Position numbers and translations under genes: made by a program. This document shows positions 643 to 62,914 of a stretch of DNA of 64,000 nucleotides, piece by piece. Position 1 is the first letter of the stretch, and each line of letters begins with the position of its first letter. The notes beneath the pieces are model-generated. The model had not been told where the DNA came from. It did not search any database and saw only the letters and a list, made by a program, of their open reading frames with translations. Origin of the DNA: an uncultured Spirochaetota bacterium (lineage in GTDB: Bacteria > Spirochaetota > Spirochaetia > SZUA-6 > Fen-1364); NCBI GenBank assembly GCA_963820525.1, contig CAWGAA010000001.1, positions 1,248,001 through 1,312,000 of the forward strand. The letters are read 5' to 3'.

Positions 643-849
643 ATCGGTTTTGACGCTCCGGGCTTCCCTCGCCCCCCTTGCCGCCTCCCCCCTCCCCAGG
701 CCCACCCCCTCCGCTTACCCCCCATCTATGGTATCCTTTGGTCGTCTGGGAGGGGATGGCTCAAAAGGGGGGCTTCGGTCGCGGTACGCTCCTCCCTCGC
801 GGGCATCCTTGCCCGTTCACTCGTCGCTACCGCGAACCCCCTCCGCTGC
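643..849 (+). repeat. ~200-bp GC-rich structured repeat, copy A (inverted relative to copy B)
   Basis: TTGACGCTCCGGGCTTCCCTCGCCCCCCTTGCCGCCTCCCCC...TACCGCGA aligns with the reverse complement of 5843-6044. Internal hairpin TCGCGGTA...CGGGCA-TCCT-TGCCCG...TACCGCGA. Confidence 0.9.
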
Positions 850-883
850 AAGGGCTGTTTGGGCGCTGACGGGCTTCCGAGCG

Positions 884-1843
884 TCATATGCGGTTATTCA
901 TGGCCAATCTCCAATAGTACCGCCCGGAGGGGGTCAGCCGGCATGCCTTTGAGCGCATCGCAGCATCATACATATGCTGTGCATCGCAAGGCACGACGAG
1001 GTGAACTCGACTTAAGGTCTGAAGATCTCTGAAGATAGTCGTCTTGGCCGGGTCTGCAGTTGGCGAAGTAGGCTCATAGGAAGGATCAAGTAGAAGATCC
1101 TCGGCGGGCAACGGAAACAACGAGGGCAACTTGCGTAGAGTTTCTCGATCGACGGGGGGCGCGCATCGACGTAGCGGAATCAAACGAGAGACGTGCGACT
1201 TGAAAAGTGGTCGCTGATCCCACGCACCAAGTGCTGCATCGATATATGCGTACACACTCGGAGCTGTGACGGCGCCTAGGATGTCGGCCGCACCGCCAGT
1301 GAGAGCGTCTACTACCAGCGAAGTAAACAAACCACCGCCCCCGGTTTCAACGGAAGGCTGATCTCCTCGACTCGCGGTTAGTATGGAAAGCCCTTCTCGT
1401 AGAAGTGTCTTGGTATTGTCAACCGCAGGCGGGTTACCAAGTGCGCCAGAAAAGCAGCAATCTAGGAGAAGTACGACTTCCGCCGCTTTGGAGTCATTGG
1501 CCCACTTGAGGATATCGGCCATGGCGACACCCTCATCATATTTCTTGGCGTCTTGGGTTACTGGATAGCCATCGAGGTTATTGACGGTGCCGTGCCCAGA
1601 AAAATGTAATAGGGCGACATCTGCCTTATCTCGGAAAAGCTTCTCGATAGCTTCACGTAACGCCGCTCTTGTAATGAGATTGGGCGCGCCGCCAACAGGC
1701 GCGGTTAGAATCCGACAGTCGAAATTTGGTGATCCATCGTGATTCGTGGTAAGAACAGCAACAATTCTCTCCGCGTCGCTTACGCAGCCGCGAAGGGACC
1801 CGTCCGAATACTGATCGATTCCTACACAGAGTGCACGGCGCAT
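884..1843 (-). CDS. Caspase-family (peptidase C14) protease, type IV Thoeris-like effector
   Basis: RALCVGIDQY...LRGCVSDA N-terminus, catalytic His in HFSGHG and catalytic Cys in LLDCCFSG. Lies directly downstream of a TIR gene. Confidence 0.92.
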   Translation of the reverse strand: MRRALCVGIDQYSDGSLRGCVSDAERIVAVLTTNHDGSPNFDCRILTAPVGGAPNLITRAALREAIEKLFRDKADVALLHFSGHGTVNNLDGYPVTQDAKKYDEGVAMADILKWANDSKAAEVVLLLDCCFSGALGNPPAVDNTKTLLREGLSILTASRGDQPSVETGGGGLFTSLVVDALTGGAADILGAVTAPSVYAYIDAALGAWDQRPLFKSHVSRLIPLRRCAPPVDRETLRKLPSLFPLPAEDLLLDPSYEPTSPTADPAKTTIFRDLQTLSRVHLVVPCDAQHMYDAAMRSKACRLTPSGRYYWRLAMNNRI

Positions 1844-1866
1844 ATGCAATCCCCTGTTTTCCAGAG

Positions 1867-2256
1867 TCAGCGGGACCCGCCGATCAATGCCTTGAGATTA
1901 TCCCAAGTCCAATTGTAAATCTTGTCGCTATCTTTGGCGGCTTTTGGCTTCTTGCATGTCTTATTGGCCCGTCCCCAGAGTAAGAAGTAAGGTTTTCCCT
2001 CTTCTTGTGCAATCGTGAGTTCTGCGGACACCCCTGTGGCGGTGTCAGTGTATTCACCGCAGATCACCGCGACGATATCGACGCTACGAATTCGCGTTCG
2101 CACTTTGTCCTTCCAGTTACCCGTCATGGGCTCCTGCACTGACCAATCGGCTAGATCGAATGGAGAGTCGGGATGCTTCGCTTGGCCTACAAGAAGATTC
2201 CGTAGATCCTCGTCGTGATCGAAGTCGAAGCTAGTAAAAACGCGTTTCTTTGCCAT
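1867..2256 (-). CDS. TIR-domain protein (ThsB/DUF1863, MTH538-like)
   Basis: KKRVFTSFDFDHD start, RIRSVDIVAVICGE, catalytic Glu in GVSAELTIAQEEGKP. GGAGG RBS upstream. Confidence 0.9.
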   Translation of the reverse strand: MAKKRVFTSFDFDHDEDLRNLLVGQAKHPDSPFDLADWSVQEPMTGNWKDKVRTRIRSVDIVAVICGEYTDTATGVSAELTIAQEEGKPYFLLWGRANKTCKKPKAAKDSDKIYNWTWDNLKALIGGSR

Positions 2257-2324
2257 TTCACTCCCTCCTCTTCATCTTTGCGGCACTCAACGACTCCTGA
2301 CCGAGTTAAAAACGCGAAGCATCA

Positions 2325-3389
2325 TCAGCTCCAATCTGTTGTTAGCCGGCCTCTCGCACTGAACCACGTCACTTGCTGGATCCCGAAACTGTAATTGACG
2401 TCATACGATACGGGGATCGGGTAGACGAACCAAGAAGCATCTGGATATCGAGCTGATAACCATATAGCACAGGTAAAGATGACTGACTTCGGGCCGAATG
2501 GAAAAAGAAGAATCGGCGCCTTGCGAGGCTGAACCTCTTTTAGCAATTCATCCAGCACCATCTCAACTGTCATCGAATCGAGCACAGCTACACGTCTTCT
2601 TTCCCATTTCTGGGAGCGCATGCGACTCAGCTGCTGAAGCAGTCTCTGATTCCTTCGCAGCATGAGGTGCTTAAAATCTGGTCTTCCAGGATACTCTGGA
2701 ATCAAGATCCGACCACCCGCAGGTTCTATCTCACCAATTGCCACGACAAGACGTTGGGCCTCATGGCCAGGTATTATAATTCCGCGGCCATCAGTCTCGT
2801 AGAACAGACTAGCACCTTCCGCTAATGGGGCAATGATGATATCAGACCATGCTGTCGGACCCTCTAATCGCTCATCTAAGAATCCATAGTTCTCGGGGAT
2901 CACATATGCCACGATTGCGCCTCGGTCCGTCTCCAAAGCTAAAAAGGCACCAATGGCCATTGTGTGGATCTTCGTCAAGCAACTTACATCTAGAATCATG
3001 ACATCATATGGCTGCGCGTTACATACCGTCTCAAAGAGCCTCCTCACCTCGTCGAATGCATACGGCGACAGCTTTTCAACTCGCAAGGCATTCTGGAATA
3101 GTCCGCCCGCAAGTTCCATCAATCGTGACTTGTTAAGAGCGCGTTTAATCTCTCCTTCGGGCTGCGGGACAATGCCCGTATCATATTCGATAAGGATTCC
3201 ATCAGTTAGCCGTACGCCCATATTACGGAGTTGAATAAGCGTCCCTATGCATCTTTCCTCAAAGCTTAGCGCACCGATCCATACCGATCTCTCCGCGCTT
3301 CGCACAGCTGCTAGCACGTGCTCGTCAGAGAGGGACTTAACATACTGTGGTGTTATTCCCTGTTGCTGACCTACGCTTGGCCGCTTCAT
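2325..3389 (-). CDS. Conserved hypothetical protein, probable tandem CARF-like Rossmann protein of the type that accompanies ORC/CDC6-like ATPases
   Basis: 354 aa with SFEERC, ILDVSCLTK, YVIPENY, IIPGHEAQR, PFGPK and VYPIPVSY..YSFG motifs. Its start overlaps the stop of the upstream ATPase (TAATG). Confidence 0.55.
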   Translation of the reverse strand: MKRPSVGQQQGITPQYVKSLSDEHVLAAVRSAERSVWIGALSFEERCIGTLIQLRNMGVRLTDGILIEYDTGIVPQPEGEIKRALNKSRLMELAGGLFQNALRVEKLSPYAFDEVRRLFETVCNAQPYDVMILDVSCLTKIHTMAIGAFLALETDRGAIVAYVIPENYGFLDERLEGPTAWSDIIIAPLAEGASLFYETDGRGIIIPGHEAQRLVVAIGEIEPAGGRILIPEYPGRPDFKHLMLRRNQRLLQQLSRMRSQKWERRRVAVLDSMTVEMVLDELLKEVQPRKAPILLFPFGPKSVIFTCAIWLSARYPDASWFVYPIPVSYDVNYSFGIQQVTWFSARGRLTTDWS

Positions 3390-5609
3390 TACTTAGGCTG
3401 TTGCCTCCACTGCCGAAACCGCTCAAGGAAGAGTCTGGCCTCCTCACGTACGCTTGAAGGCTTCACTACGACTACGGTATCTTCGCATCGTGACAAGCCC
3501 TCCGCGGTATACTCTCTCTCCTTTGCGTCCGGAGGCTCAACGACGACGATTCTCCGGGAAAGCTTCTTCGCGCCGTAACCAGCGTCCGGACGAGCCACTA
3601 CAGCCCCGCACACATAGTGTGCGAAGGCGTCCCACTCTGTGCCATCAAGAGTAACGACTAGAAAACTTGCAAGAGTAGCTCTCTCCAGGATCTTAGCGGG
3701 GGGATCTTGGTCAGAATAGATTTCCGCATGTATATTCTCTCGTTGTGTGAGGGTTTGGAACTGCTTGGTGGCCTGACTGGTCCAATCGGTCGGTTTAATC
3801 CAAACGAGCAATGCAGGGAGCGGAGGTGGGTTTCCTCGCCGAGGTCTCAGGCTCGGATCTGCAAGATGAGCCTCAATGCTTGCCACGAGATCTCCCAGGT
3901 CCAGCCCGCTCTGGAACTCTCCAACTTGCCTTCGCCTCAGCCAGTATGGTAATTCGCTTCGCGCGCCCGCAGCGACTACAGGAAGGAGAGGTACACCGAG
4001 GCCATAAGCGAAGCCGAGTTCGAACACAACCTCGGGTCTCATCCCTGTGCAATCGCCTACGACAAGGCTCGAGGAACCAATCCGACGTCGAATCTCCTCG
4101 GCCCAATCCTCGGTTCCAACCGGCACCCACCCATTTTGCACTTTCACTGTCGCAAGGCGTGAATGCACCGAAAGTTCTTGTTCCAATGCCACACTAAATG
4201 CCTTGCTCTCTTCGGAATGCATCCTGTATGCGATGAAAACGCTTGGAACTGGCGATGGACCTCCACGCACTCTCCTGAAATCTTGTTCCCGTATCTTGAG
4301 AGGTTCTAAGCGTTCGGCATCAGCATACGACCACCTCGGATCTCCCGGCTGCCACATCAACAACGGCGGTACTTCGAGTAGTGTTGGGCAGTCGCCTGGT
4401 AGCCAAATTCGCCCATTAGGTATGCACAAAGCAGCTGATCGGAGAGCCGCCTCAATAAATAAGAATAGACGTGTCGGCTCGGGAATCAGGAGCGGCTCGT
4501 TCTCCGGTAAGATATTCAAAGTCACGGGACCGCGCACCTGACCGACCTTTTTAATGACCTCCTTTCGAAGCCACGAGATCGCCTCTCCGTAATCTTGATG
4601 GTGTGGTCGGAGCTTCGTCTTAACAGCCATAAAGTATAGTTCCCTGAGATCCACTAACGCTTCGATCAAATTCCCATCGATATTATCTTCTCGTGAAGGT
4701 GCCACTCGCGCAATGACTTCTAGGGCCAAGCGAATGGAGTCTCGAGATAGTGCGATCACCGCATCAAGCCGGTCTCTTCCGATTCGCTTCAGGAGCTCCT
4801 CTCCCACTTGAGCTGCCAGAGCGTCACTAACAAAGTCCGCCCATTCCTTCGTAAGCGGACTACGCCCAAGGTTGTACACGTCGTAGTGATCTCCCGGAGC
4901 GCTACTCTCGTCTAGACGTGTAACAATTCCACTGCCATGACCTGGTCTCGTTGCTACCAAAGCGGTATAGCCCGGCGACTGATCCATCAACTGCAGTACT
5001 GGGACTAGTGCCAACGGCGATACTAGATCAGCCCTATCCAGTAGCAATAATAACGACCCCTCCGCTCGCAATGATGCCTCTGCAGCTTCACGTCCAAACT
5101 CGACAAGCGGTCGCGTCATCGGAACTGATTCGAACACTGGCAGACTTGCCCGGGATACGCGAATTTTCGCTTCCCACAACCAGTCTCTGAGACTTCGAGG
5201 CATTCTACCCAATAGCGTACGTGGGATGCACTCCGCGACTGCATCTCGATTAACGCGTACCCGCTTTCGCAGCAGTCTACTCGCGATCGAAAGCGACAAG
5301 AGCGCCGATGCCTTGTTCCCGACGAAGTCGGAGCGTACACCGGACGCCTGACGAACGAGTGGTCCGAGAGCATCTTGACGTGCGAGGCTCGAAAGTTCGG
5401 TCGCCAGTGACAGATGAAGCGCTACGCCATCATGAATGGCTTTCTGGTAGCGAAGAAGCGTTGTCTTCCCAACTCCCTTGGACCCTGCAGATGAGCGCAC
5501 TTCTTGAAAACGACCCGGGTAACTCCGGCGGTCGCTGGAATATCCTTTCCACATCGTCGTCAGGTATTTTTTCCCCGTCAGTCCAAAGAGTTAATTGCCT
5601 GGATCCCAT
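3389..5609 (-). CDS. P-loop (STAND/ORC-CDC6-like) ATPase fused to a C-terminal nucleoside-deoxyribosyltransferase/TIR-like domain; apparent 1-nt indel near 5490
   Basis: Walker A GSKGVGKT and Walker B LLLLLDRAD. C-terminal VFIAYRM...IRRRIGSSSLVVGDCTGMRPEVVFELGFAYGLG. The ATG at 5609 (MGSRQLTLWTDGEKI...SALI) joins the Walker A frame if one base is removed. Confidence 0.75.
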
Positions 5610-5842: not shown

Positions 5843-6044
5843 GCAGCGTAGGGCTCGCGGTAGCGACAAGCGAGCGGGCAAGGATGTCCGCGAGCGAGGA
5901 GCGTACCGCGATCGAAGCCCCCCTTTTGAGCCACCCCCTCCCAGACGACCACAGGATACCATAGCCGGGGGGGTAAGCGGAGGGGAGGGCCTGGGAGGGG
6001 GAGGCGGCAAGGGGGGCGAGGGAAGCCCGAAGCGTCAAGCCGAT
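5843..6044 (-). repeat. ~200-bp GC-rich structured repeat, copy B
   Basis: Reverse complement matches 643-849 with scattered substitutions, and the same hairpin is retained. Confidence 0.9.
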
Positions 6045-6378
6045 TCGAGCGGTCCCTCCGAGTATTCTGTAAGAGTGTTGCCACAGTCCGACGCAAAGTC
6101 ATCCACTTGTTAGTTTCCCTTTAATTATGGAGCGCAGCTTACTCTTCCAACCACTTGTGTGTAGCACTCTCTCGAAAGACTCACCGTACTTGCCCGAAAG
6201 GAGGTCAATGCGGCTCTTCTTGCTGAGCTCTTCCCATTCTTCAAACATAACGTAGACTGCATTGCCATATTCTATGTTCTCAAAAACAACAAGATCGTCT
6301 CGCATGAGTGCTCCGAAGTAGCGCCGGAATCCACTGGTTCCGAAAACTAGCTTCTGAGGCTCTAGGGTCATGAAGAAA

Positions 6379-7421
6379 AGGGGGATATTTACTTCGCGGC
6401 ACCTGAAGTGGTATCCTGACGCGTGGCTAATATTAGCTGTTTTGTTCCGCGCGCCGGAATAGACTACCCGAGGAACATTACCGAGTTCCATCAGTTATTT
6501 CCTGATGAGAATAGTTGCCGGCGCTACCTTCAAAACGTTAGATGGAGGGATGGCTTTGTTTGCCATGCATGCGGCAGAAACGGTGATCCTTGGCACGCCA
6601 TGCGCGACGTTTTGTTATGTCCGTACTGTCGCTCTAAAACAAGATTGACAGCAGGAACCGTTTTCGAGGGTACTCGCAAGCCTCTAAAGATGTGGTTTCT
6701 TGCGATGTGGGAGCTGACCAGCCAGAAGTATGGAGCCAACGCGCTTGGACTTCAGCGCGATCTCGGCCTGAGAAGCTACACAACCGCCTGGGCGTGGCTT
6801 CACAAGCTCCGGCGAGCGATGGTACGTCCAGGTCGGGATCGACTTCACGGTCATGTGGAAGTCGATGAGAGCTACATTGGAGGAGAAGAATCCAACGTCA
6901 AAGGCCGCCAGACGACCAAAAAGGCCATCGTTGCAATCGCGGTTGAACTTAACGATGGAAGAATGGGGCGTATACGCCTACGGCACGTAGCTGATATTAC
7001 GGCGAAAAGCCTTCAAAGTTTCGTTACAGACGTTGTAGAACACGGTAGTACCGTGAGAACAGACGGATTGTCGTCATATGTCGGGCTCGATACTCTCAAG
7101 TTCAAGCACGATGTGACCGTGCTTTCAGATTCACATGATCCTGCACACGTCCAGATGCCGAGCGTACATCGTATTGCTGCGCTTCTTAAGCGTTGGCTGC
7201 TGGGTACCCTTCAGGGTTCAGTTAGCACTGAACATCTGCCGTACTATCTTGATGAGTTTACCTTCCGGTTCAACAGGCGTACATCAAATTCCCGCGGGAT
7301 GTTGTTCTACCGACTTCTCGAGCAAGCGTTGCTGGTCGGCCATGTCAGCACAAGGCAGCTTTTCAAGAAAACCGGGCGGGGCGTGCGGCATTCATTAGGT
7401 GCCGTGAAGTAAATATCCCCC
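6379..7421 (+). mobile_element. IS1595-family insertion sequence
   Basis: Terminal inverted repeats GGGGGATATTTACTTC(G/A)CGGCACCT. 8-bp target duplication TGAAGAAA at 6371-6378 and 7422-7429. Confidence 0.93.
6423..7412 (+). CDS. IS1595-family transposase
   Basis: N-terminal Zn ribbon (CHAC...CPYC), VEVDESYIGG, RTDG, YLDEFTFRFNRR. Confidence 0.93.
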   Translation: MANISCFVPRAGIDYPRNITEFHQLFPDENSCRRYLQNVRWRDGFVCHACGRNGDPWHAMRDVLLCPYCRSKTRLTAGTVFEGTRKPLKMWFLAMWELTSQKYGANALGLQRDLGLRSYTTAWAWLHKLRRAMVRPGRDRLHGHVEVDESYIGGEESNVKGRQTTKKAIVAIAVELNDGRMGRIRLRHVADITAKSLQSFVTDVVEHGSTVRTDGLSSYVGLDTLKFKHDVTVLSDSHDPAHVQMPSVHRIAALLKRWLLGTLQGSVSTEHLPYYLDEFTFRFNRRTSNSRGMLFYRLLEQALLVGHVSTRQLFKKTGRGVRHSLGAVK

Positions 7422-8140: not shown

Positions 8141-9181
8141 TTAATGCCAACAGAAGCTTGGTGCGGCCGCGAGCCCAGTCCGAACGCCATCACTTCTCCT
8201 CCACATGGGGGGCAACCCTTTGCGACTCAGGACTTCCCAATGGTTCGTTTTGAGGCCCTTGATCAGTTTCTCAGTCTCCTCTAATGCTTGGAGCAGCTCT
8301 TGGTCGTTTTTCAGGTTTGCCAGCGTAGTCCAAGGATAGCCTTTGATGGTTTCAGCCAGTGCCTGGATGTCCCCGGCAAGACCCGGCCGTCTCTTCGTCT
8401 GAACGGGCCCGAGCTTCAGAAGAGCCGACTCGACTGAGCCGTCGTTCGATAGGAAGTCGTCTCGCGCCACGGGATCTGGCAATATCTGTCGCAGTTTTCT
8501 CACATCCTTGGAGTTCGTCATCTTCTGGTCGTTGACCTTCTTGATGACGGCGTTGAGCACATCTTGAGTTAGCAGTTTTCGGTTGAGGTTCTTGATTTCG
8601 CGGGCCCAAGTGATCGACGTCGATGGGTCAGGCAGATTCGTGAGCTTCTCCGAAAGCTGATAAATCTCCACCAGCTTGTCCAAGTCACGAACAGTGGTGC
8701 CGAGTATATTGGCGGCGCTGGCGCGGCCGACCAAATCGACCAACCGGTAGGCCACCATCTCTTTCTCTTTCGCGTCCCATTCCTTCCTCTGGCGGTGGAT
8801 GTATATCCACACCCTGAGCCGCTCGTCGTCGCTTAGAGTCCGGTCCGTAATTTCTGCGGGGAATGTGCGGTATTGCTCCTTTTTGTTAACCTCGACTAGG
8901 ATCTTCGAGTTGCTCCATCGGCGATCTCCGTCAATGATGCGGAACTTCCCAGGGTGGTCGGGATGGGGCTCAAGCAGGAGCGGCTCGAAGATCCCCTCGT
9001 TCGCTTCGATCTGCCGTTGGAGTTCGGGGTCTTCCTTCGGCCCTAATCGCGGCTGATTCGCGTTTGGTAACACGTCGTCCAAACCAACGGTAGCCCGACG
9101 CGTTCTCAGAATCGTTCGTTCAAGCCGCCTTTCATGCCAGGGACTACCTGGAGGTGCGTTCTCAAGGGATTCTTGGCTCAT
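8141..9181 (-). CDS. ParB/sulfiredoxin N-terminal-domain protein (true stop possibly about 8227 if a 1-nt indel is corrected)
   Basis: PNANQPR, GIFEPLLL and FRIIDGDRRW ParB box followed by an HTH-like region. No ParA nearby. Confidence 0.8.
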   Translation of the reverse strand: MSQESLENAPPGSPWHERRLERTILRTRRATVGLDDVLPNANQPRLGPKEDPELQRQIEANEGIFEPLLLEPHPDHPGKFRIIDGDRRWSNSKILVEVNKKEQYRTFPAEITDRTLSDDERLRVWIYIHRQRKEWDAKEKEMVAYRLVDLVGRASAANILGTTVRDLDKLVEIYQLSEKLTNLPDPSTSITWAREIKNLNRKLLTQDVLNAVIKKVNDQKMTNSKDVRKLRQILPDPVARDDFLSNDGSVESALLKLGPVQTKRRPGLAGDIQALAETIKGYPWTTLANLKNDQELLQALEETEKLIKGLKTNHWEVLSRKGLPPMWRRSDGVRTGLAAAPSFCWH

Positions 9182-9188
9182 CTGCCCC

Positions 9189-10397
9189 TCACTTCGTGCC
9201 TTCATGCGAAGAAGCCCGACCTTCAATTATCGCGCTAACTTCGGTATCGATCACCCCTACTGCGTTCCGCAGCCGAGTGGCCATCTTTCCTCTCTTCTCC
9301 CAGGTCTTGTCGTGGGTACGTTTCTCCTCAACATCGAGATCAAGTATCTCATTCGACAAGCGTGTGGCTTCGACCAAGTGCTGTCGGAAAACCTCTGAGG
9401 CGATGTATTTATAGAGTTGCTCTTTCTTGTTAGCCTTCTCGGTCTGGCTCAGCTTGAGAGCACTCATGCGGGTCATAGCCTCACGGAGCAGGCGGACGAT
9501 CTCCACCGCCCGAGCACGGTTGACTACGATTACCCCTGTCTCCTTGTCGACGTAAAGCTCCTTCTTTCCCCGGGGGTAGACCGTAGTGGCCAAGACCGCG
9601 TGCTCTGCCTTCTCCGCCATTTGATCTTCACGCAGCTTCGTCACGTACGAGTTCTGCCAGCTATTGCGGTTCTTTGAGTCGATGAGGATAGTCCCACACG
9701 ACTCGCCCCTGTAAATTACCTGGTGGCGTATATCTGCGCCTGGCTCGCCCCTCTTAACGCGCTTAATGTCGTCACGGGCGAATGCATCGCGCAGAGCATC
9801 AAAGACATCAATTTCTGCACCTTCTCCGAGCTCATCCGCGGTTTTGTGTTGCACCTGGCGCGTCAGGGCATCAATCTTCTGCTGGAGCTGCTCGCGCTCG
9901 CGATTGTTCTGGACCTGTACCTTGAGGACCTGCGAGTCGCGGTCCTTTTCCAGAACTGAGCGCTGCTGCTCCAGTTCCTTCTTGTTTGCGGTTTCGAGCT
10001 GCTTCAGCTTCGCAGTGGCCTCGTCCCTCTCTGCCGCGAGAGTGGATAGCTTGCCGCTCGCTTCTTCCTTGACTCGGGCCTCGGCCTGGGCCGCGGCTTG
10101 CTTGCGAACTGCTGCTTCGTTGTCTTGCAGTTCTTTGATTTTCGCGGCTGCCTTGTCCCGCTCGGCGGTTATCTCAGCGAGTTTCCCGTCGGCTTCCTTC
10201 CTTAGCCGCGCCTCCACCTTCTGCATCTTGGCGCTGAACTGCTGCTCCATCAGAGTCCGCTCTTCAGCCAGTTTCTGATGTTCCTCCTCTGCGATTTTGT
10301 TCTTGATCTCGATGAATTTCACCCGCGAAATCGTGGATCCACACCACGGGCACTTCTCTGTGGCTACCCGAGACCGAACAGCGACCTCTGTGCTCAT
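9189..10397 (-). CDS. DUF2130-like protein (CxxC Zn knuckle, long coiled coil, C-terminal PD-(D/E)xK-like domain)
   Basis: CPWCG, E/K/A-rich coiled coil, and GEGAE...GADIRHQV...CGTILIDSKN...W..KLREDQ. Confidence 0.8.
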   Translation of the reverse strand: MSTEVAVRSRVATEKCPWCGSTISRVKFIEIKNKIAEEEHQKLAEERTLMEQQFSAKMQKVEARLRKEADGKLAEITAERDKAAAKIKELQDNEAAVRKQAAAQAEARVKEEASGKLSTLAAERDEATAKLKQLETANKKELEQQRSVLEKDRDSQVLKVQVQNNREREQLQQKIDALTRQVQHKTADELGEGAEIDVFDALRDAFARDDIKRVKRGEPGADIRHQVIYRGESCGTILIDSKNRNSWQNSYVTKLREDQMAEKAEHAVLATTVYPRGKKELYVDKETGVIVVNRARAVEIVRLLREAMTRMSALKLSQTEKANKKEQLYKYIASEVFRQHLVEATRLSNEILDLDVEEKRTHDKTWEKRGKMATRLRNAVGVIDTEVSAIIEGRASSHEGTK

Positions 10398-10559
10398 AAG
10401 GCACCTCCCCTCTCCCTCCTTAGAAGGAGTCAAAAGGAGTATACTACTCCTTTTATGTCCTTGTCAAGTCTTTCTACAACGAAATCTCCGGGGTTCCTTT
10501 CGCCCGACGAAAAGCCAATTGACTGCAATGCCTTGATTGTATGACTATGCTCCATCACC

Positions 10560-11360
10560 ATGCCGGACCCATCGGCCACCAGCAATATCCACGAGAGGAT
10601 CAAAAAAGCCGCCTCCCTCATTCGCTCCGCGCGCTACCTCACCGCCTTCACGGGCGCGGGCATCTCCGTGGAGAGCGGCATCCCGCCCTTCCGCGGCCCC
10701 GGCGGGCTGTGGAACAAATACGACCCACGGATGCTGGAGATCGACTACTTCCTGGCCAACCCCGGGAAGGCATGGCCGGTGATCCGCGAGATCTTCTACG
10801 ACCACTTCGGCCGCGCGCGGCCCAACCGCGCTCACCAGGTGCTCGCCCGCCTGGAGAATGAGGGGTTGGCGCGCGATCCCGACGGCCCTGGCCGCCTCCA
10901 GGTCCTCATCACCCAGAACATCGACAACCTTCATTTTGAGGCCGGCTCGCGGAAGGTCGTCGAGTTTCACGGAAACTCACGGACCCTTGTCTGCATGGCT
11001 TGCCGAAAGAGCCGCCCCGCGGAGCCGAAGTTGCTGGAAGTCCTTCCTCCCCGCTGTCCCTGCGGCGGCATCTACAAGCCGGATTTCATTTTCTTTGGAG
11101 AAGGGATCCCGCCGCGCGCACTGGCGGAGTCGCAGGATGCCGCGCGGAAAACCGATGTCATGCTGGTGGTCGGCTCCACGGGAGAAGTGTATCCGGCCGC
11201 GGGCGTTCCGCGCCAGGCCAAGGACGGCGGCGCCAAAATCATAGAGATAAATCCCTCGATGTCGGAGTTCACAGTCTCCGTGACCGACCTCTTCATCCCG
11301 CTGGGGGCGGGAGAAGCCCTCGCGCTCATCGAGCAGGAGCTCACCGGCACGCAACCATGA
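10560..11360 (+). CDS. cobB: NAD-dependent deacylase (Sir2/CobB), copy 1
   Basis: [27 protein letters not shown], two CxxC-type Zn pairs, VGSTG. Confidence 0.92.
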
Positions 11361-11754
11361 AGGAGAACCTGAAGATGAAGCTCATCGACCTTCGAAGCGA
11401 TACCGTCACCCGGCCGTCGCCGGAGATGCGCAAGGCCATGTACGACGCCGAAGTGGGAGACGACGTGTACGGGGAAGACCCCACGGTGAACAGGCTCCAG
11501 GAGCTGTCGGCCGAAATCACGGGCAAGGAGGCGGCGCTGTTCGTGAGCTCCGGCTCCCATGGGCAACCTCATCCCCATTTACCTCAACTGCGGGCGTGGC
11601 AACGAGCTGCTGATCGATTCCCGCGGCCATGTCATCAACTATGAAATGGCATCTGTGGCAAACATCGCAGGAAGCCTGCCCGTCGCCATCCCCACGGAAA
11701 AGGGAATCCTCGCGGCGGAGCAGCTTGGGGAGCGCATCAGACCGGACATCTATT
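10902..11754 (+). repeat. ~850-bp direct repeat (cobB 3' half + ltaE 5' part), matches about 61419-62270
   Basis: Near-identical sequence from GTCCTCATCACCCAGAACATCGAC to CCGGACATCTATT, with scattered, mostly synonymous differences. Confidence 0.9.
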
Positions 11755-11756
11755 AA
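11357..11756 (+). pseudogene. ltaE: Low-specificity L-threonine aldolase, 5' fragment
   Basis: [12 protein letters not shown]...GDDVYGEDP. Frameshift near 11557, truncated at RPDIY*. Confidence 0.85.
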
Positions 11757-54456: not shown

Positions 54457-54890
54457 AATCCGCGATCAGCTCTGCCGTCTCCCTCATCCGAGGCGCCCGT
54501 TACCTCACCGCCTTCACCGGCGCGGGGATCAGCGTGGAAAGCGGCATCCCGCCCTTTCGCGGCCCCGGCGGCTTGTGGAGCCAGTACGACCCCCGCATGT
54601 TGGAACTCGACTACTTCCTGGCCCACCCAGACAAGTCATGGCCTATCCTCCGGGAGATCTTCTACGACCACTTCGGCAAGGCGCGGCCCAATAAGGCGCA
54701 CGAAGTCCTGGCGCGCCTGGAGAACGAGGGGTGGCCGCGCGAAAGCGCGGCCCGCGGCGAAGCCGATGGGGGGCATGCGCCGGGCAGCACGAGCGGCCCA
54801 GATGCCCGCGGCCGCCTCCAGGTCCTCAACACACAGAACATCGACAACCTCTGCTTCGAGACAGGCTCCCGCAACGTCATTGAGTCCCAT
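54457..54890 (+). pseudogene. cobB: Third cobB copy, 5' half only
   Basis: [15 protein letters not shown]...TQNIDNL, truncated at VIESH. Its start is replaced by the IS91 end. Confidence 0.8.
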
Positions 54891-61103: not shown

Positions 61104-61877
61104 ATGAGAAGCTCCGAGCCTTTCACCAATGCCCATGAGGCCGTCCGTGAAGCGGCCGCACTCATCCGCTCCGCCCATTACCTCACCGCCTTCACGGGCG
61201 CGGGGATCAGCGTGGAGAGCGGCATCCCGCCCTTCCGCGGGGAGGGCGGCCTGTGGAACAAGTACGACCCCCGGTTGCTCGAGCTTGACTACTTCCTGAG
61301 GCATCCTGAAGTCTCCTGGCCCATCCTCCGGGAGATCTTCTACGAGCACTTCGGCAAGGCGCGGCCCAACAGGGCCCACGAAGTGCTTGCAGCTTGGGAG
61401 GCGCGCGGCCTGCTGAAAGTCCTCATCACCCAGAACATCGACAACCTTCACTTCGAGGCCGGCTCGCGGAACGTCGTCGAGTTTCACGGAAACTCACGGA
61501 CCCTTGTCTGCATGGCTTGCCGAAAGAGCCGCCCCGCGGAGCCGAAGCTGCTGGAAGTCCTTCCTCCCCGCTGTCCCTGCGGCGGCATCTACAAGCCGGA
61601 TTTCATCTTCTTTGGAGAGGGGATCCCGCCGCGCGCCCTGGCGGAATCTCAGGATGCCGCGCGGAAAACCGATGTCATGCTGGTGGTCGGCTCCACGGGA
61701 GAGGTGTACCCGGCCGCGGCCGTTCCGCGCCAAGCCAAGGACGGCGGCGCAAAAATCATAGAGATAAATCCCTCGATGTCGGAGTTCACAATCTCCGTAA
61801 CCGACCTCTTCATCCCGCTTCAGGCGGGAGAAGCCCTTGCGCTCATCGAGCGGGAGCTCACCGGCACGCAACCATGA
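61104..61877 (+). CDS. cobB: NAD-dependent deacylase (Sir2/CobB), copy 2
   Basis: Same motifs as copy 1; 3' half near-identical, 5' half divergent. Confidence 0.92.
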
Positions 61878-62270
61878 AGGAGAATCTGAAGATGAAGCTC
61901 ATAGACCTTCGAAGCGATACCGTCACCCGGCCGTCGCCGGAGATGCGCAAGGCCATGTACGACGCCGAAGTGGGAGACGACGTGTACGGAGAAGACCCCG
62001 CGGTGAACAGGCTCCAAGAGCTGTCGGCCGAGATCACGGGCAAGGAGGCGGCGCTGTTCGTGAGCTCCGGTTCCATGGGGAACCTCATCCCCATCTACCT
62101 CAACTGCGGGCGCGGCAACGAGCTGCTGATCGATTCCCGCGGTCATGTCATCAATTACGAGATGGCATCGATGGCAAACATCGCGGGAAGCCTGCCCGTC
62201 GCCATCCCCACGGAAAAGGGAATCCTCGCGGCGGAGCAGCTTGGGGAGCGCATCAGACCGGACATCTATT
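61419..62270 (+). repeat. Second copy of the ~850-bp cobB-ltaE direct repeat
   Basis: Matches 10902-11754. Confidence 0.9.
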
Positions 62271-62914
62271 ACCTTCCCCATACGCGCATGGTGATACTGG
62301 AAAATACCCACAACCTGGCGGGCGGAACCCTCTATCCCCCTTTCGGTCCTCAAAGAGATCCGCTCCTTCACGCGTGAGAAAGGCTTGAGCGTCCACATGG
62401 ATGGGGCCAGGATGTTCAACGCGGCGGTCGCCTCGGGAGCCTCCCCTCGCGAGATCGCGGCCCAGACCGACACGGTGACCTTCTGCCTGTCCAAGGGCCT
62501 GGGTGCCCCGGTGGGCGCCCTGCTCTGCGGAGAGCGGCCGTTCATCCAGGAGGCCAGAAGGGTGAGAAAGATGCTTGGAGGGGGAATGCGGCAGGTGGGG
62601 GTGCTTGCCGCCGCAGGGATCTACGCCCTCAGGCACAACGTCGAGCGCCTGGCCGAAGACCACCAGAACGCGAAGGCCATCGCGCACGCGCTTTCGGTCA
62701 CGAAATGGGCCTCCGTGAATCAGGAGGATGTCGAGACGAACATCGTCTTCGCCCAGACCCTCGGCCCCGCTGACGCAGTTGTAGCGGCCTTGAAGGAGCG
62801 GGGAGGCTGTGCAGCGCCATGGGGAAAAACGCCGTGCGCCTCGTCACGCACCTCGATGTTCCGGCCAAAGACATCGCCGAGGCCGTGAAGATCATCCAGT
62901 CGGTCCGGCTGTAG
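61874..62914 (+). CDS. ltaE: Low-specificity L-threonine aldolase, full length with apparent homopolymer frameshifts (about 62340 and 62805)
   Basis: [41 protein letters not shown]. Confidence 0.85.

Follow-up and report, generated by a model that had tools for sequence, protein, structure and literature searches.

A TIR-caspase pair and an ATPase-CARF pair share one inverted-repeat-bounded cassette in an uncultured Spirochaetota bacterium

A block of four tightly spaced genes in the genome of an uncultured Spirochaetota bacterium raises the question whether it encodes one immune system or two. The block lies in a stretch of 64,000 nucleotides (nt) (NCBI GenBank assembly GCA_963820525.1, contig CAWGAA010000001.1, positions 1,248,001 to 1,312,000 of the forward strand), referred to here as the window, in whose coordinates positions are given unless a genome is named. 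Four co-oriented open reading frames (ORFs), g1 to g4, occupy 884..5609 on the minus strand. They encode an ATPase fused to a domain of the nucleoside deoxyribosyltransferase (NDT)/TIR fold (g1), a stand-alone tandem-CARF (SAVED-like) protein (g2), a short ThsB-type TIR protein (g3) and a caspase-like protease (g4). A first-pass annotation had proposed a single four-gene operon, an extended form of type IV Thoeris. Our analysis leans, with reasonable though not strong confidence, towards two autonomous two-gene anti-phage modules, g1-g2 (module A) and g3-g4 (module B), which lie next to each other in one cassette bounded by inverted repeats. When together, the two modules may optionally be coupled.

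The long ORF of g1 (3389..5554, minus strand) encodes 721 amino acids (aa) from ATG 5554. The ancestral 5' end of the gene lies in another frame (5487..5609, minus strand, ATG 5609), and its N-terminal peptide aligns to the database proteins P0002, P0004, P0005 and P0007. On the same strand follow g2 (2325..3389, 354 aa), g3 (1867..2256, 129 aa) and g4 (884..1849), which comprises 321 aa from TTG 1849 or 319 aa from ATG 1843, the position at which the database copy P0017 starts. The genes g1 and g2 overlap by 1 nt, 68 bp separate g2 from g3 and 23 bp lie between g3 and the ATG of g4; the order and spacing described in the first-pass annotation were thus reproduced. Because homologues exist for all four, they are real genes and not chance ORFs. 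They are probably co-transcribed. A promoter and terminator scan of the locus stayed at chance level (2 promoter-like sites versus 2.6 expected, 5 terminator-like sites versus 4.7), with a weak hairpin at the g2 stop as its sole feature of note.

The distribution of the genes revealed that g1-g2 and g3-g4 are separable in both directions. Profile-guided scans recovered g1-g2 at 2 genome and 23 metagenome loci, and a profile search of 401 genomes from the phylum of locus L006, an Acidobacteriota metagenome-assembled genome, added the genome G486. A TIR-caspase pair adjoins g1-g2 at one of these 26 other loci, L006 (phmmer, E<=1e-3; Pfam and PADLOC scans of 73, 30 and 8 neighbouring ORFs); at least 0.5 kb of sequence downstream of g2 is available at six loci only (L006, L007, L012, L013, L017 and L029), none of which falls in the g1 clade of the window. 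In the genome that hosts L007 (G402), the only g4 match was weak (1.2e-6) and fell, away from g1-g2, on an unrelated caspase-domain protein of 748 aa, and G486 gave no g4 match; the completeness of these two assemblies is not given. In the other direction, G225, a 99%-complete genome of the window's class, encodes the closest TIR-caspase set within that class, namely a g3-like TIR and two caspases with 51% and 45% identity to g4, together with a membrane protein, and has neither g1 nor g2. This distribution does not support an obligate four-gene system, as each pair occurs without the other: 25 of the 26 loci show no TIR-caspase pair, G402 and G486 have no g4-type caspase, and G225 has no g1-g2. 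The first-pass annotation had taken it as a sign of two independent systems if homologues of the ATPase pair never neighboured TIR-caspase genes; such neighbours do occur, since L006 has all four genes, though among the 26 other loci they were found at this one only.

Searches with the individual genes returned at least 2396 relatives of g4 and 4439 of g3. Among the matches listed, 119 clusters showed 71-86% identity to g4 and 119 clusters 76-92% identity to g3. The search with g1 (word-indexed, 5.8 billion clusters) returned 15 relatives, of which two exceeded 60% identity (P0003, 76% over 62% of the query; P0002, 69%). The lists for the TIR and the caspase have 23 'longest contig' lengths in common, six of them of at least 10 kb, and share none with the g1 list. 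Because each value is taken from the longest contig in a 90% cluster, the field is an indirect proxy for location on the same contig; read in this way, it indicates that the TIR-caspase pair travels together. Within the window's phylum, g4-type caspases were present in 3 of 401 genomes, and g2 in one of the 401 sampled genomes, the window's own.

At L006 the genes run in the order TIR, caspase, g1, g2; two of the junctions are gaps (18 bp and 27 bp) and one is a 4-nt overlap. Window and L006 proteins are 38% (g1), 38.5% (g2) and 42.5% (caspase) identical, and the TIRs have no BLASTP similarity. A quick maximum-likelihood tree of 27 g1 sequences (SH-aLRT support only; the partial P0003 and P0015, the duplicates L009 and L011, the split L020 and L022 and fragments were omitted) placed the window g1 in an 8-row clade with 100% support and L006 outside a clade with 96% support. 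In this tree the two g1 copies, both beside TIR-caspase genes, are therefore not sisters.

The protein g3 matched ThsB_TIR (PF08937; 1.2e-5, 26.1 bits at a cut-off of 21.2) as well as the ThsB models of PADLOC, and g4 matched Peptidase_C14 (3.2e-13) and the PADLOC caspase model (6.7e-19). The candidate catalytic residues that the first-pass annotation had called intact are indeed present: glutamate (E) 79 of g3 is invariant in 9/9 aligned TIRs, two of them distant, and histidine (H) 86 and cysteine (C) 132 of g4 (TTG numbering) are invariant in 9/9 caspases and align to the yeast metacaspase motifs SGHG and DSCHSG. The C-terminal ~130 aa of g4 are conserved, and many of their invariant residues are common to the L006 and G225 caspases. 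The solved structures that matched g4 were metacaspases, with none beyond these. In the available part of the report on type IV Thoeris (Rousset et al., 10.1101/2024.10.24.620036), which describes a ThsB TIR and the caspase-like ThsE, the tested pair carries E79 in PsTIR and C129 in PsCaspase, to which g3 E79 and g4 C132 are presumably equivalent. By family assignment g3 and g4 form a type IV Thoeris-like pair and an ordinary further member of this type, with a chemistry predicted by analogy. They share with it the TIR glutamate, the caspase cysteine and histidine and the location in a defence island; the likeness is one of family and motifs. In contrast to type IV Thoeris, the pair here belongs to an operon-like block with two extra genes. 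The genes at L035 (G225:C147, 2501-6396), all in one strand block, are a TIR and a caspase and, past a gap that holds small ORFs, a caspase paralogue with 45% identity to g4 and a predicted membrane protein of 265 aa; this set may represent an expanded variant of type IV Thoeris.

In type IV Thoeris, a cyclic ADP-ribose (ADPR) isomer made by the TIR protein (N7-cADPR) activates the caspase-like protease, which cleaves proteins broadly, according to the same part of that report (10.1101/2024.10.24.620036). By analogy, g3 would sense infection and make an NAD-derived cyclic ADPR signal, this signal would activate the g4 protease through its C-terminal domain, and broad proteolysis would then abort the infection.

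The N-terminal half of g1 is a P-loop ATPase of the ORC/Cdc6-like type, with Walker A at aa 24-31, Walker B (LLLLD) at aa 169-173 and a helical region thereafter. Pfam ORC-CDC6-like and AAA_22 each matched 13 of 14 family members and AAA_16 matched 12; the window g1 is the sole member with 0 ATPase matches, because its frameshift, described below, precedes the P-loop. The structure model (pLDDT 76.8) showed two flavodoxin-like domains in the C-terminal half, namely the NDT/TIR-fold domain (aa 435-573) and a second one at aa 579-720. Compared with solved structures, the modelled domain at aa 435-573 matched MilB (4ohr; Z 13.7, 132 aa aligned), four NDTs (Z 11.7-12.5), the SfSTING TIR (12.9), the MAL TIR (12.2) and Cat1 (9mud; Z 9.8). 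E512, which lies in the motif FELGFAYG, is invariant in 14/14 aligned sequences and, by its motif, probably represents the catalytic glutamate of the NDT/TIR fold. Profile matches to this domain were all weak (Pfam Nuc_deoxyrib_tr in 5/14 family members, best E 0.0088; TIR_2 in 1/14; PADLOC TIR effector model, 3e-6). Pfam found neither a C-terminal repeat sensor of the STAND type (TPR, WD40, LRR) nor DUF4062 in g1. The whole g1 model returned generic tandem-Rossmann matches only in Foldseek, for example EngA, and the profiles of g1 and g2 found no useful match among PDB sequences. NCBIfam assigned a Sll1717-family ATPase, below threshold, to the L006 and L007 copies of g1 only, and among the g1 look-alikes in a protein atlas were one cluster of Sll1717-family P-loop ATPases (0.93), one of DUF4062 (0.90) and others of TIR_2+AAA_22.

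The structure model of g2 (pLDDT 84.5, pTM 0.88) displayed two CARF domains in one chain. Its best structural match was Can1 (6sce; Z 15.2 over 239 residues), and further matches comprised Card1 (11.8), Can2 (11.5 and 11.2), Csm6 and the SAVED domains of Cap4/Cap5 (9-10). The PADLOC CARF6 model aligned over aa 32-337 (7e-12), and no Pfam family matched. As modelled, g2 is a member of the CARF/SAVED superfamily that carries the CARF Rossmann-like fold twice; no effector domain was found in it. The motifs GALSFEERC, D(I/V)(T/S)CxTKxH and FP(F/Y)GPK are conserved. The relatives of g2 amount to 452 representatives, and 150 among the matches listed span 126-390 aa. The g2 homologue at L023 (4509-5992) has a C-terminal extension of ~140 aa, absent from the others, which runs to the contig end and is the only hint of a fused form that we noticed. 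A complex prediction for g1 (aa 236-721) with g2 scored 0.15 (mark 0.32), which argues neither for nor against binding.

The domain calls of the first-pass annotation therefore stood in essence, namely an ORC/STAND-like ATPase with an NDT/TIR-fold domain, a CARF-like partner and a type IV Thoeris layout of g3 and g4; its description of g1 as one intact gene starting at 5609 did not, as it had missed a frameshift. The frame from ATG 5609 stops after 59 codons. It holds the conserved N-terminus of the family (40 residues, MGSRQLTLWTDGEKIPDD...SRSALI) and is separated from the long frame by one extra base at ~5486-5490, directly before the Walker A motif GSKGVGKT, between strand beta-1 and the P-loop. 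Bridged with X at the break, g1 is 740 aa long, equal to its closest full-length relative P0002, and besides the one extra base g1 and g2 are full-length with all family-invariant residues. Pieces of this region in public contigs from three runs end at 5378, 5432 and 5373, and none spans 5433-5541. The frameshift may be a true mutation or an assembly error, and unless the extra base is such an error, module A may be dead in this assembly. The g1 copies of L020, L022, L027/28 and L030 are split or truncated. Two contigs of run X2 carry deletions: one of 17 nt at 3611, which breaks the g1 frame, and one of 66 nt at 1747-1814, which shortens the 5' region of g4 in frame. Each was seen in a single low-depth contig and may be a strain variant or assembly noise.

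At all 14 other loci where the contig continues past an intact g1 3' end (L006, L007, L009, L010, L012, L013, L015, L017, L018, L020, L023, L026, L029 and L041), g2 follows directly, usually overlapping. The two genes are a rare, strictly linked and mobile pair. Their neighbours include DndC/DndD with HNH at L007 (identical to L011) and also near L041, a type II restriction enzyme at L013, TnsB with two TniQ genes of a Tn7-like element at L041, a relaxase/TraG with an integrase at L017, and IstB or Mutator transposases at L023 and L027/28. Scans of viral contigs with the g1 and g2 profiles revealed no relatives. A cyclic-oligonucleotide synthase (Cas10, CD-NTase) was absent from the scanned g1-g2 neighbours; in the four host genomes (G000, G401, G402 and G486), Cas10 (Csm1 model) exceeded its cut-off in none, and SMODS was found in two, on other contigs. 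We found no description of the g1-g2 pair in the literature, in a search that left subscription journals and supplements outside its scope. At L014 (2-3825), four small ORFs, one of them DUF695, lie between the 3' end of a g2 homologue and a further g1 homologue downstream, a layout that suggests two tandem g1-g2 modules or a rearrangement.

From the folds and the linkage of g1 and g2 we infer a ligand, an activity and a direction of control for module A. The tandem-CARF protein g2 would bind a nucleotide-type signal and control g1. ATP-dependent assembly of g1 would then unleash an N-glycosidase of the NDT/TIR fold (E512), and NAD+ or nucleotides would be depleted, as in TIR-SAVED, Cat1 and Swarozyc, but with the parts split over two proteins. 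Alternatively, the NDT/TIR-fold domain might make a signal that is read by g2, in which case module A would have no apparent effector.

Like TIR-SAVED (CBASS/type III CRISPR) and the CARF-TIR protein Cat1, g1-g2 combines a CARF/SAVED sensor with a putative TIR-fold N-glycosidase that has a catalytic glutamate, and the locus can be without a cognate cyclase; the available text on a stand-alone TIR-SAVED describes cyclase-independent sensing of a host signal (10.1101/2025.06.19.660554). In g1-g2, however, sensor and enzyme are separate, translationally coupled proteins, and the enzyme domain, nearer to NDT/MilB than to a canonical TIR, shares its chain with an ORC/Cdc6-like ATPase and another flavodoxin-like domain. 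Can1, a tandem-CARF nuclease (6sce), likewise has two CARF domains per chain, whereas g2 has no nuclease or other effector domain and is not beside CRISPR-Cas. Swarozyc and the DUF4062 TIR-like NADases and TIR-ATPase fusions, as far as the available part of their description goes (10.64898/2026.05.01.722283), resemble g1 in a TIR/NDT-like domain with a glutamate, in auxiliary or ATPase domains and in their location in defence islands. In contrast to these, g1 has no DUF4062 match, always occurs with a CARF partner and carries its enzyme domain C-terminal to the ATPase. The pair g1-g2 joins known immune parts in a layout that is new, split over two proteins and ATPase-driven.

The four genes belong to one exchangeable cassette. 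A structured, G+C-rich element of ~200 nt flanks them as an inverted repeat, with its left arm at 645..850 (plus strand) and its ~90% identical right arm at 5843..6038 (minus strand), 233 nt upstream of the ancestral g1 start. Copies of the element were present in 11 of 41 related genomes; besides the two arms in the window, copies were noted at L003, L004 and L054-L061. They often form inverted pairs that enclose other defence cargo: in G820 a type ISP-like methylase/specificity pair, in G817 RadC with a type III-like methylase, a helicase and an inserted insertion sequence (IS), and in G823 a DUF4357 protein with two unknown proteins. One 'empty' pair has its arms only ~250 nt apart. These other cargoes held no homologues of g1-g4, and the flanks differ between loci. 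Across 13 copies the element has 45 predicted base pairs, of which 10 are maintained by compensatory changes, and one hairpin exists in three sequence versions. It usually starts 20-90 nt past the stop of the gene that flanks it on the outside, and its outer boundary (GACGCTNCGGGCTTCCC) is sharp. No stretch of the window reached the gathering score of an Rfam family, and matches to the repeat stayed at chance level. Our first reading of the repeats as ends of a composite transposon was abandoned, as no target-site duplication was visible by eye. The repeats could be the termini of a non-autonomous element that carries cargo, sites of docking or recombination, or 3'-end RNAs.

Several of these observations weigh against two autonomous modules. 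All four genes recur in one tight operon at L006, and since type IV Thoeris is uncommon ('hundreds' in ~38,000 genomes in the available text of 10.1101/2024.10.24.620036), one adjacency in 26 loci is more than expected for unrelated systems. The shared cassette argues mildly for the four genes as a unit, and it also fits two systems acquired together; by analogy, the cassettes of related genomes, which mostly carry one apparent system each, would favour a single unit. The relatives in the window's own g1 clade (P0002, P0004-P0007, P0010, P0011/L008) come without sequence downstream of g2, the contig-length coincidences are an indirect proxy only, and module A has no identifiable signal synthase, which leaves its mechanism incomplete. 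An integrated four-gene system, with the ATPase-NDT and tandem-CARF proteins wired to the TIR-caspase pair by a shared nucleotide signal, is a rival reading that we consider unlikely. In such a system, for example, g2 would read a TIR- or NDT-made ADPR derivative and gate a second effector, or g1 would be a second sensor that feeds the caspase. Tight four-gene operons of different order and with unrelated TIRs in two distant genomes suggest repeated assembly rather than shared descent, and in the window one inverted-repeat cassette encloses both gene sets. The TIR and NDT domains share their fold and catalytic glutamate, and g3 is weakly similar to the NDT/TIR region of the L006 g1 (27.5% over 80 aa, E 0.023). 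CARF/SAVED sensors moreover control caspase-family proteases in type III CRISPR, as stated in the available part of 10.1101/2023.06.23.546230. However, each pair mostly occurs without the other, the more than 100 close TIR-caspase relatives have no counterpart among equally close g1 relatives, and type IV Thoeris is sufficient with two genes in the available account (10.1101/2024.10.24.620036). The window, in which g1 is frameshifted, was chosen for having all four genes and cannot itself count as linkage evidence, so that 1/26 independent loci counts. A speculative version, to which we give a low probability, is a two-effector Thoeris: with both pairs present, the TIR or the NDT/TIR-fold domain would make an ADPR-type signal, and the CARF protein would read it and gate a nucleotide-degrading effector beside the caspase. 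Such a system would have arisen independently in two phyla and would move as a single cassette flanked by the structured inverted repeats.

Less probable again is that only the TIR-caspase pair functions and that g1-g2 is a decaying remnant or a non-defence module, for example for mobile-element maintenance, addiction or nucleotide signalling. The position of the frameshift directly before Walker A, the absence of an ATPase Pfam match from the window g1 alone among the 14 members, the 17-nt deletion in one X2 contig, the split or truncated g1 copies at the four loci named above and the Tn7-like, integrase and IS contexts of g1-g2 would all fit this reading. Yet the frameshift site has no independent read cover in this metagenome assembly and may be an error, g1 and g2 are otherwise full-length and keep the family-invariant residues, and the neighbours of their homologues are mostly defence genes.

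The cassette has further genes of interest around it (island contents 130-567, 6099-7412 and 8141-10433). A fragment of AIPR (abortive-infection) lies just left of it, and to its right follow a 130-aa ORF, an IS1595-family transposase, a ParB_N-like protein and a DUF2130 protein with a weak LmuB-like match. A SIR2-family gene (10560-11360) together with the start of the next gene (10560-11755) has a 90% identical copy ~50 kb away (G000:C1:1309150-1310271; window ~61150-62271). Fragments from the 5' part of this SIR2 region recur at G000:C1:1302474-1302885 (window ~54474-54885) and beside the repeat element in relatives (G820:C18:157757-158013, for example). The SIR2 duplication looks like the mark of an insertion hotspot in repeated use or of the borders of a large island.

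If module A of the two proposed modules defends its host, it would represent a cyclase-less CARF/SAVED sensor together with an NDT-fold glycosidase driven by an ORC-like ATPase. This would be a new combination of known immune parts, and it would offer a route to the signal of an orphan CARF protein. The L006 operon is an intact four-gene version and allows testing for cross-talk of Thoeris signalling with a CARF sensor. The structured inverted repeat around varied defence systems may mark a new carrier or docking site of defence cassettes.

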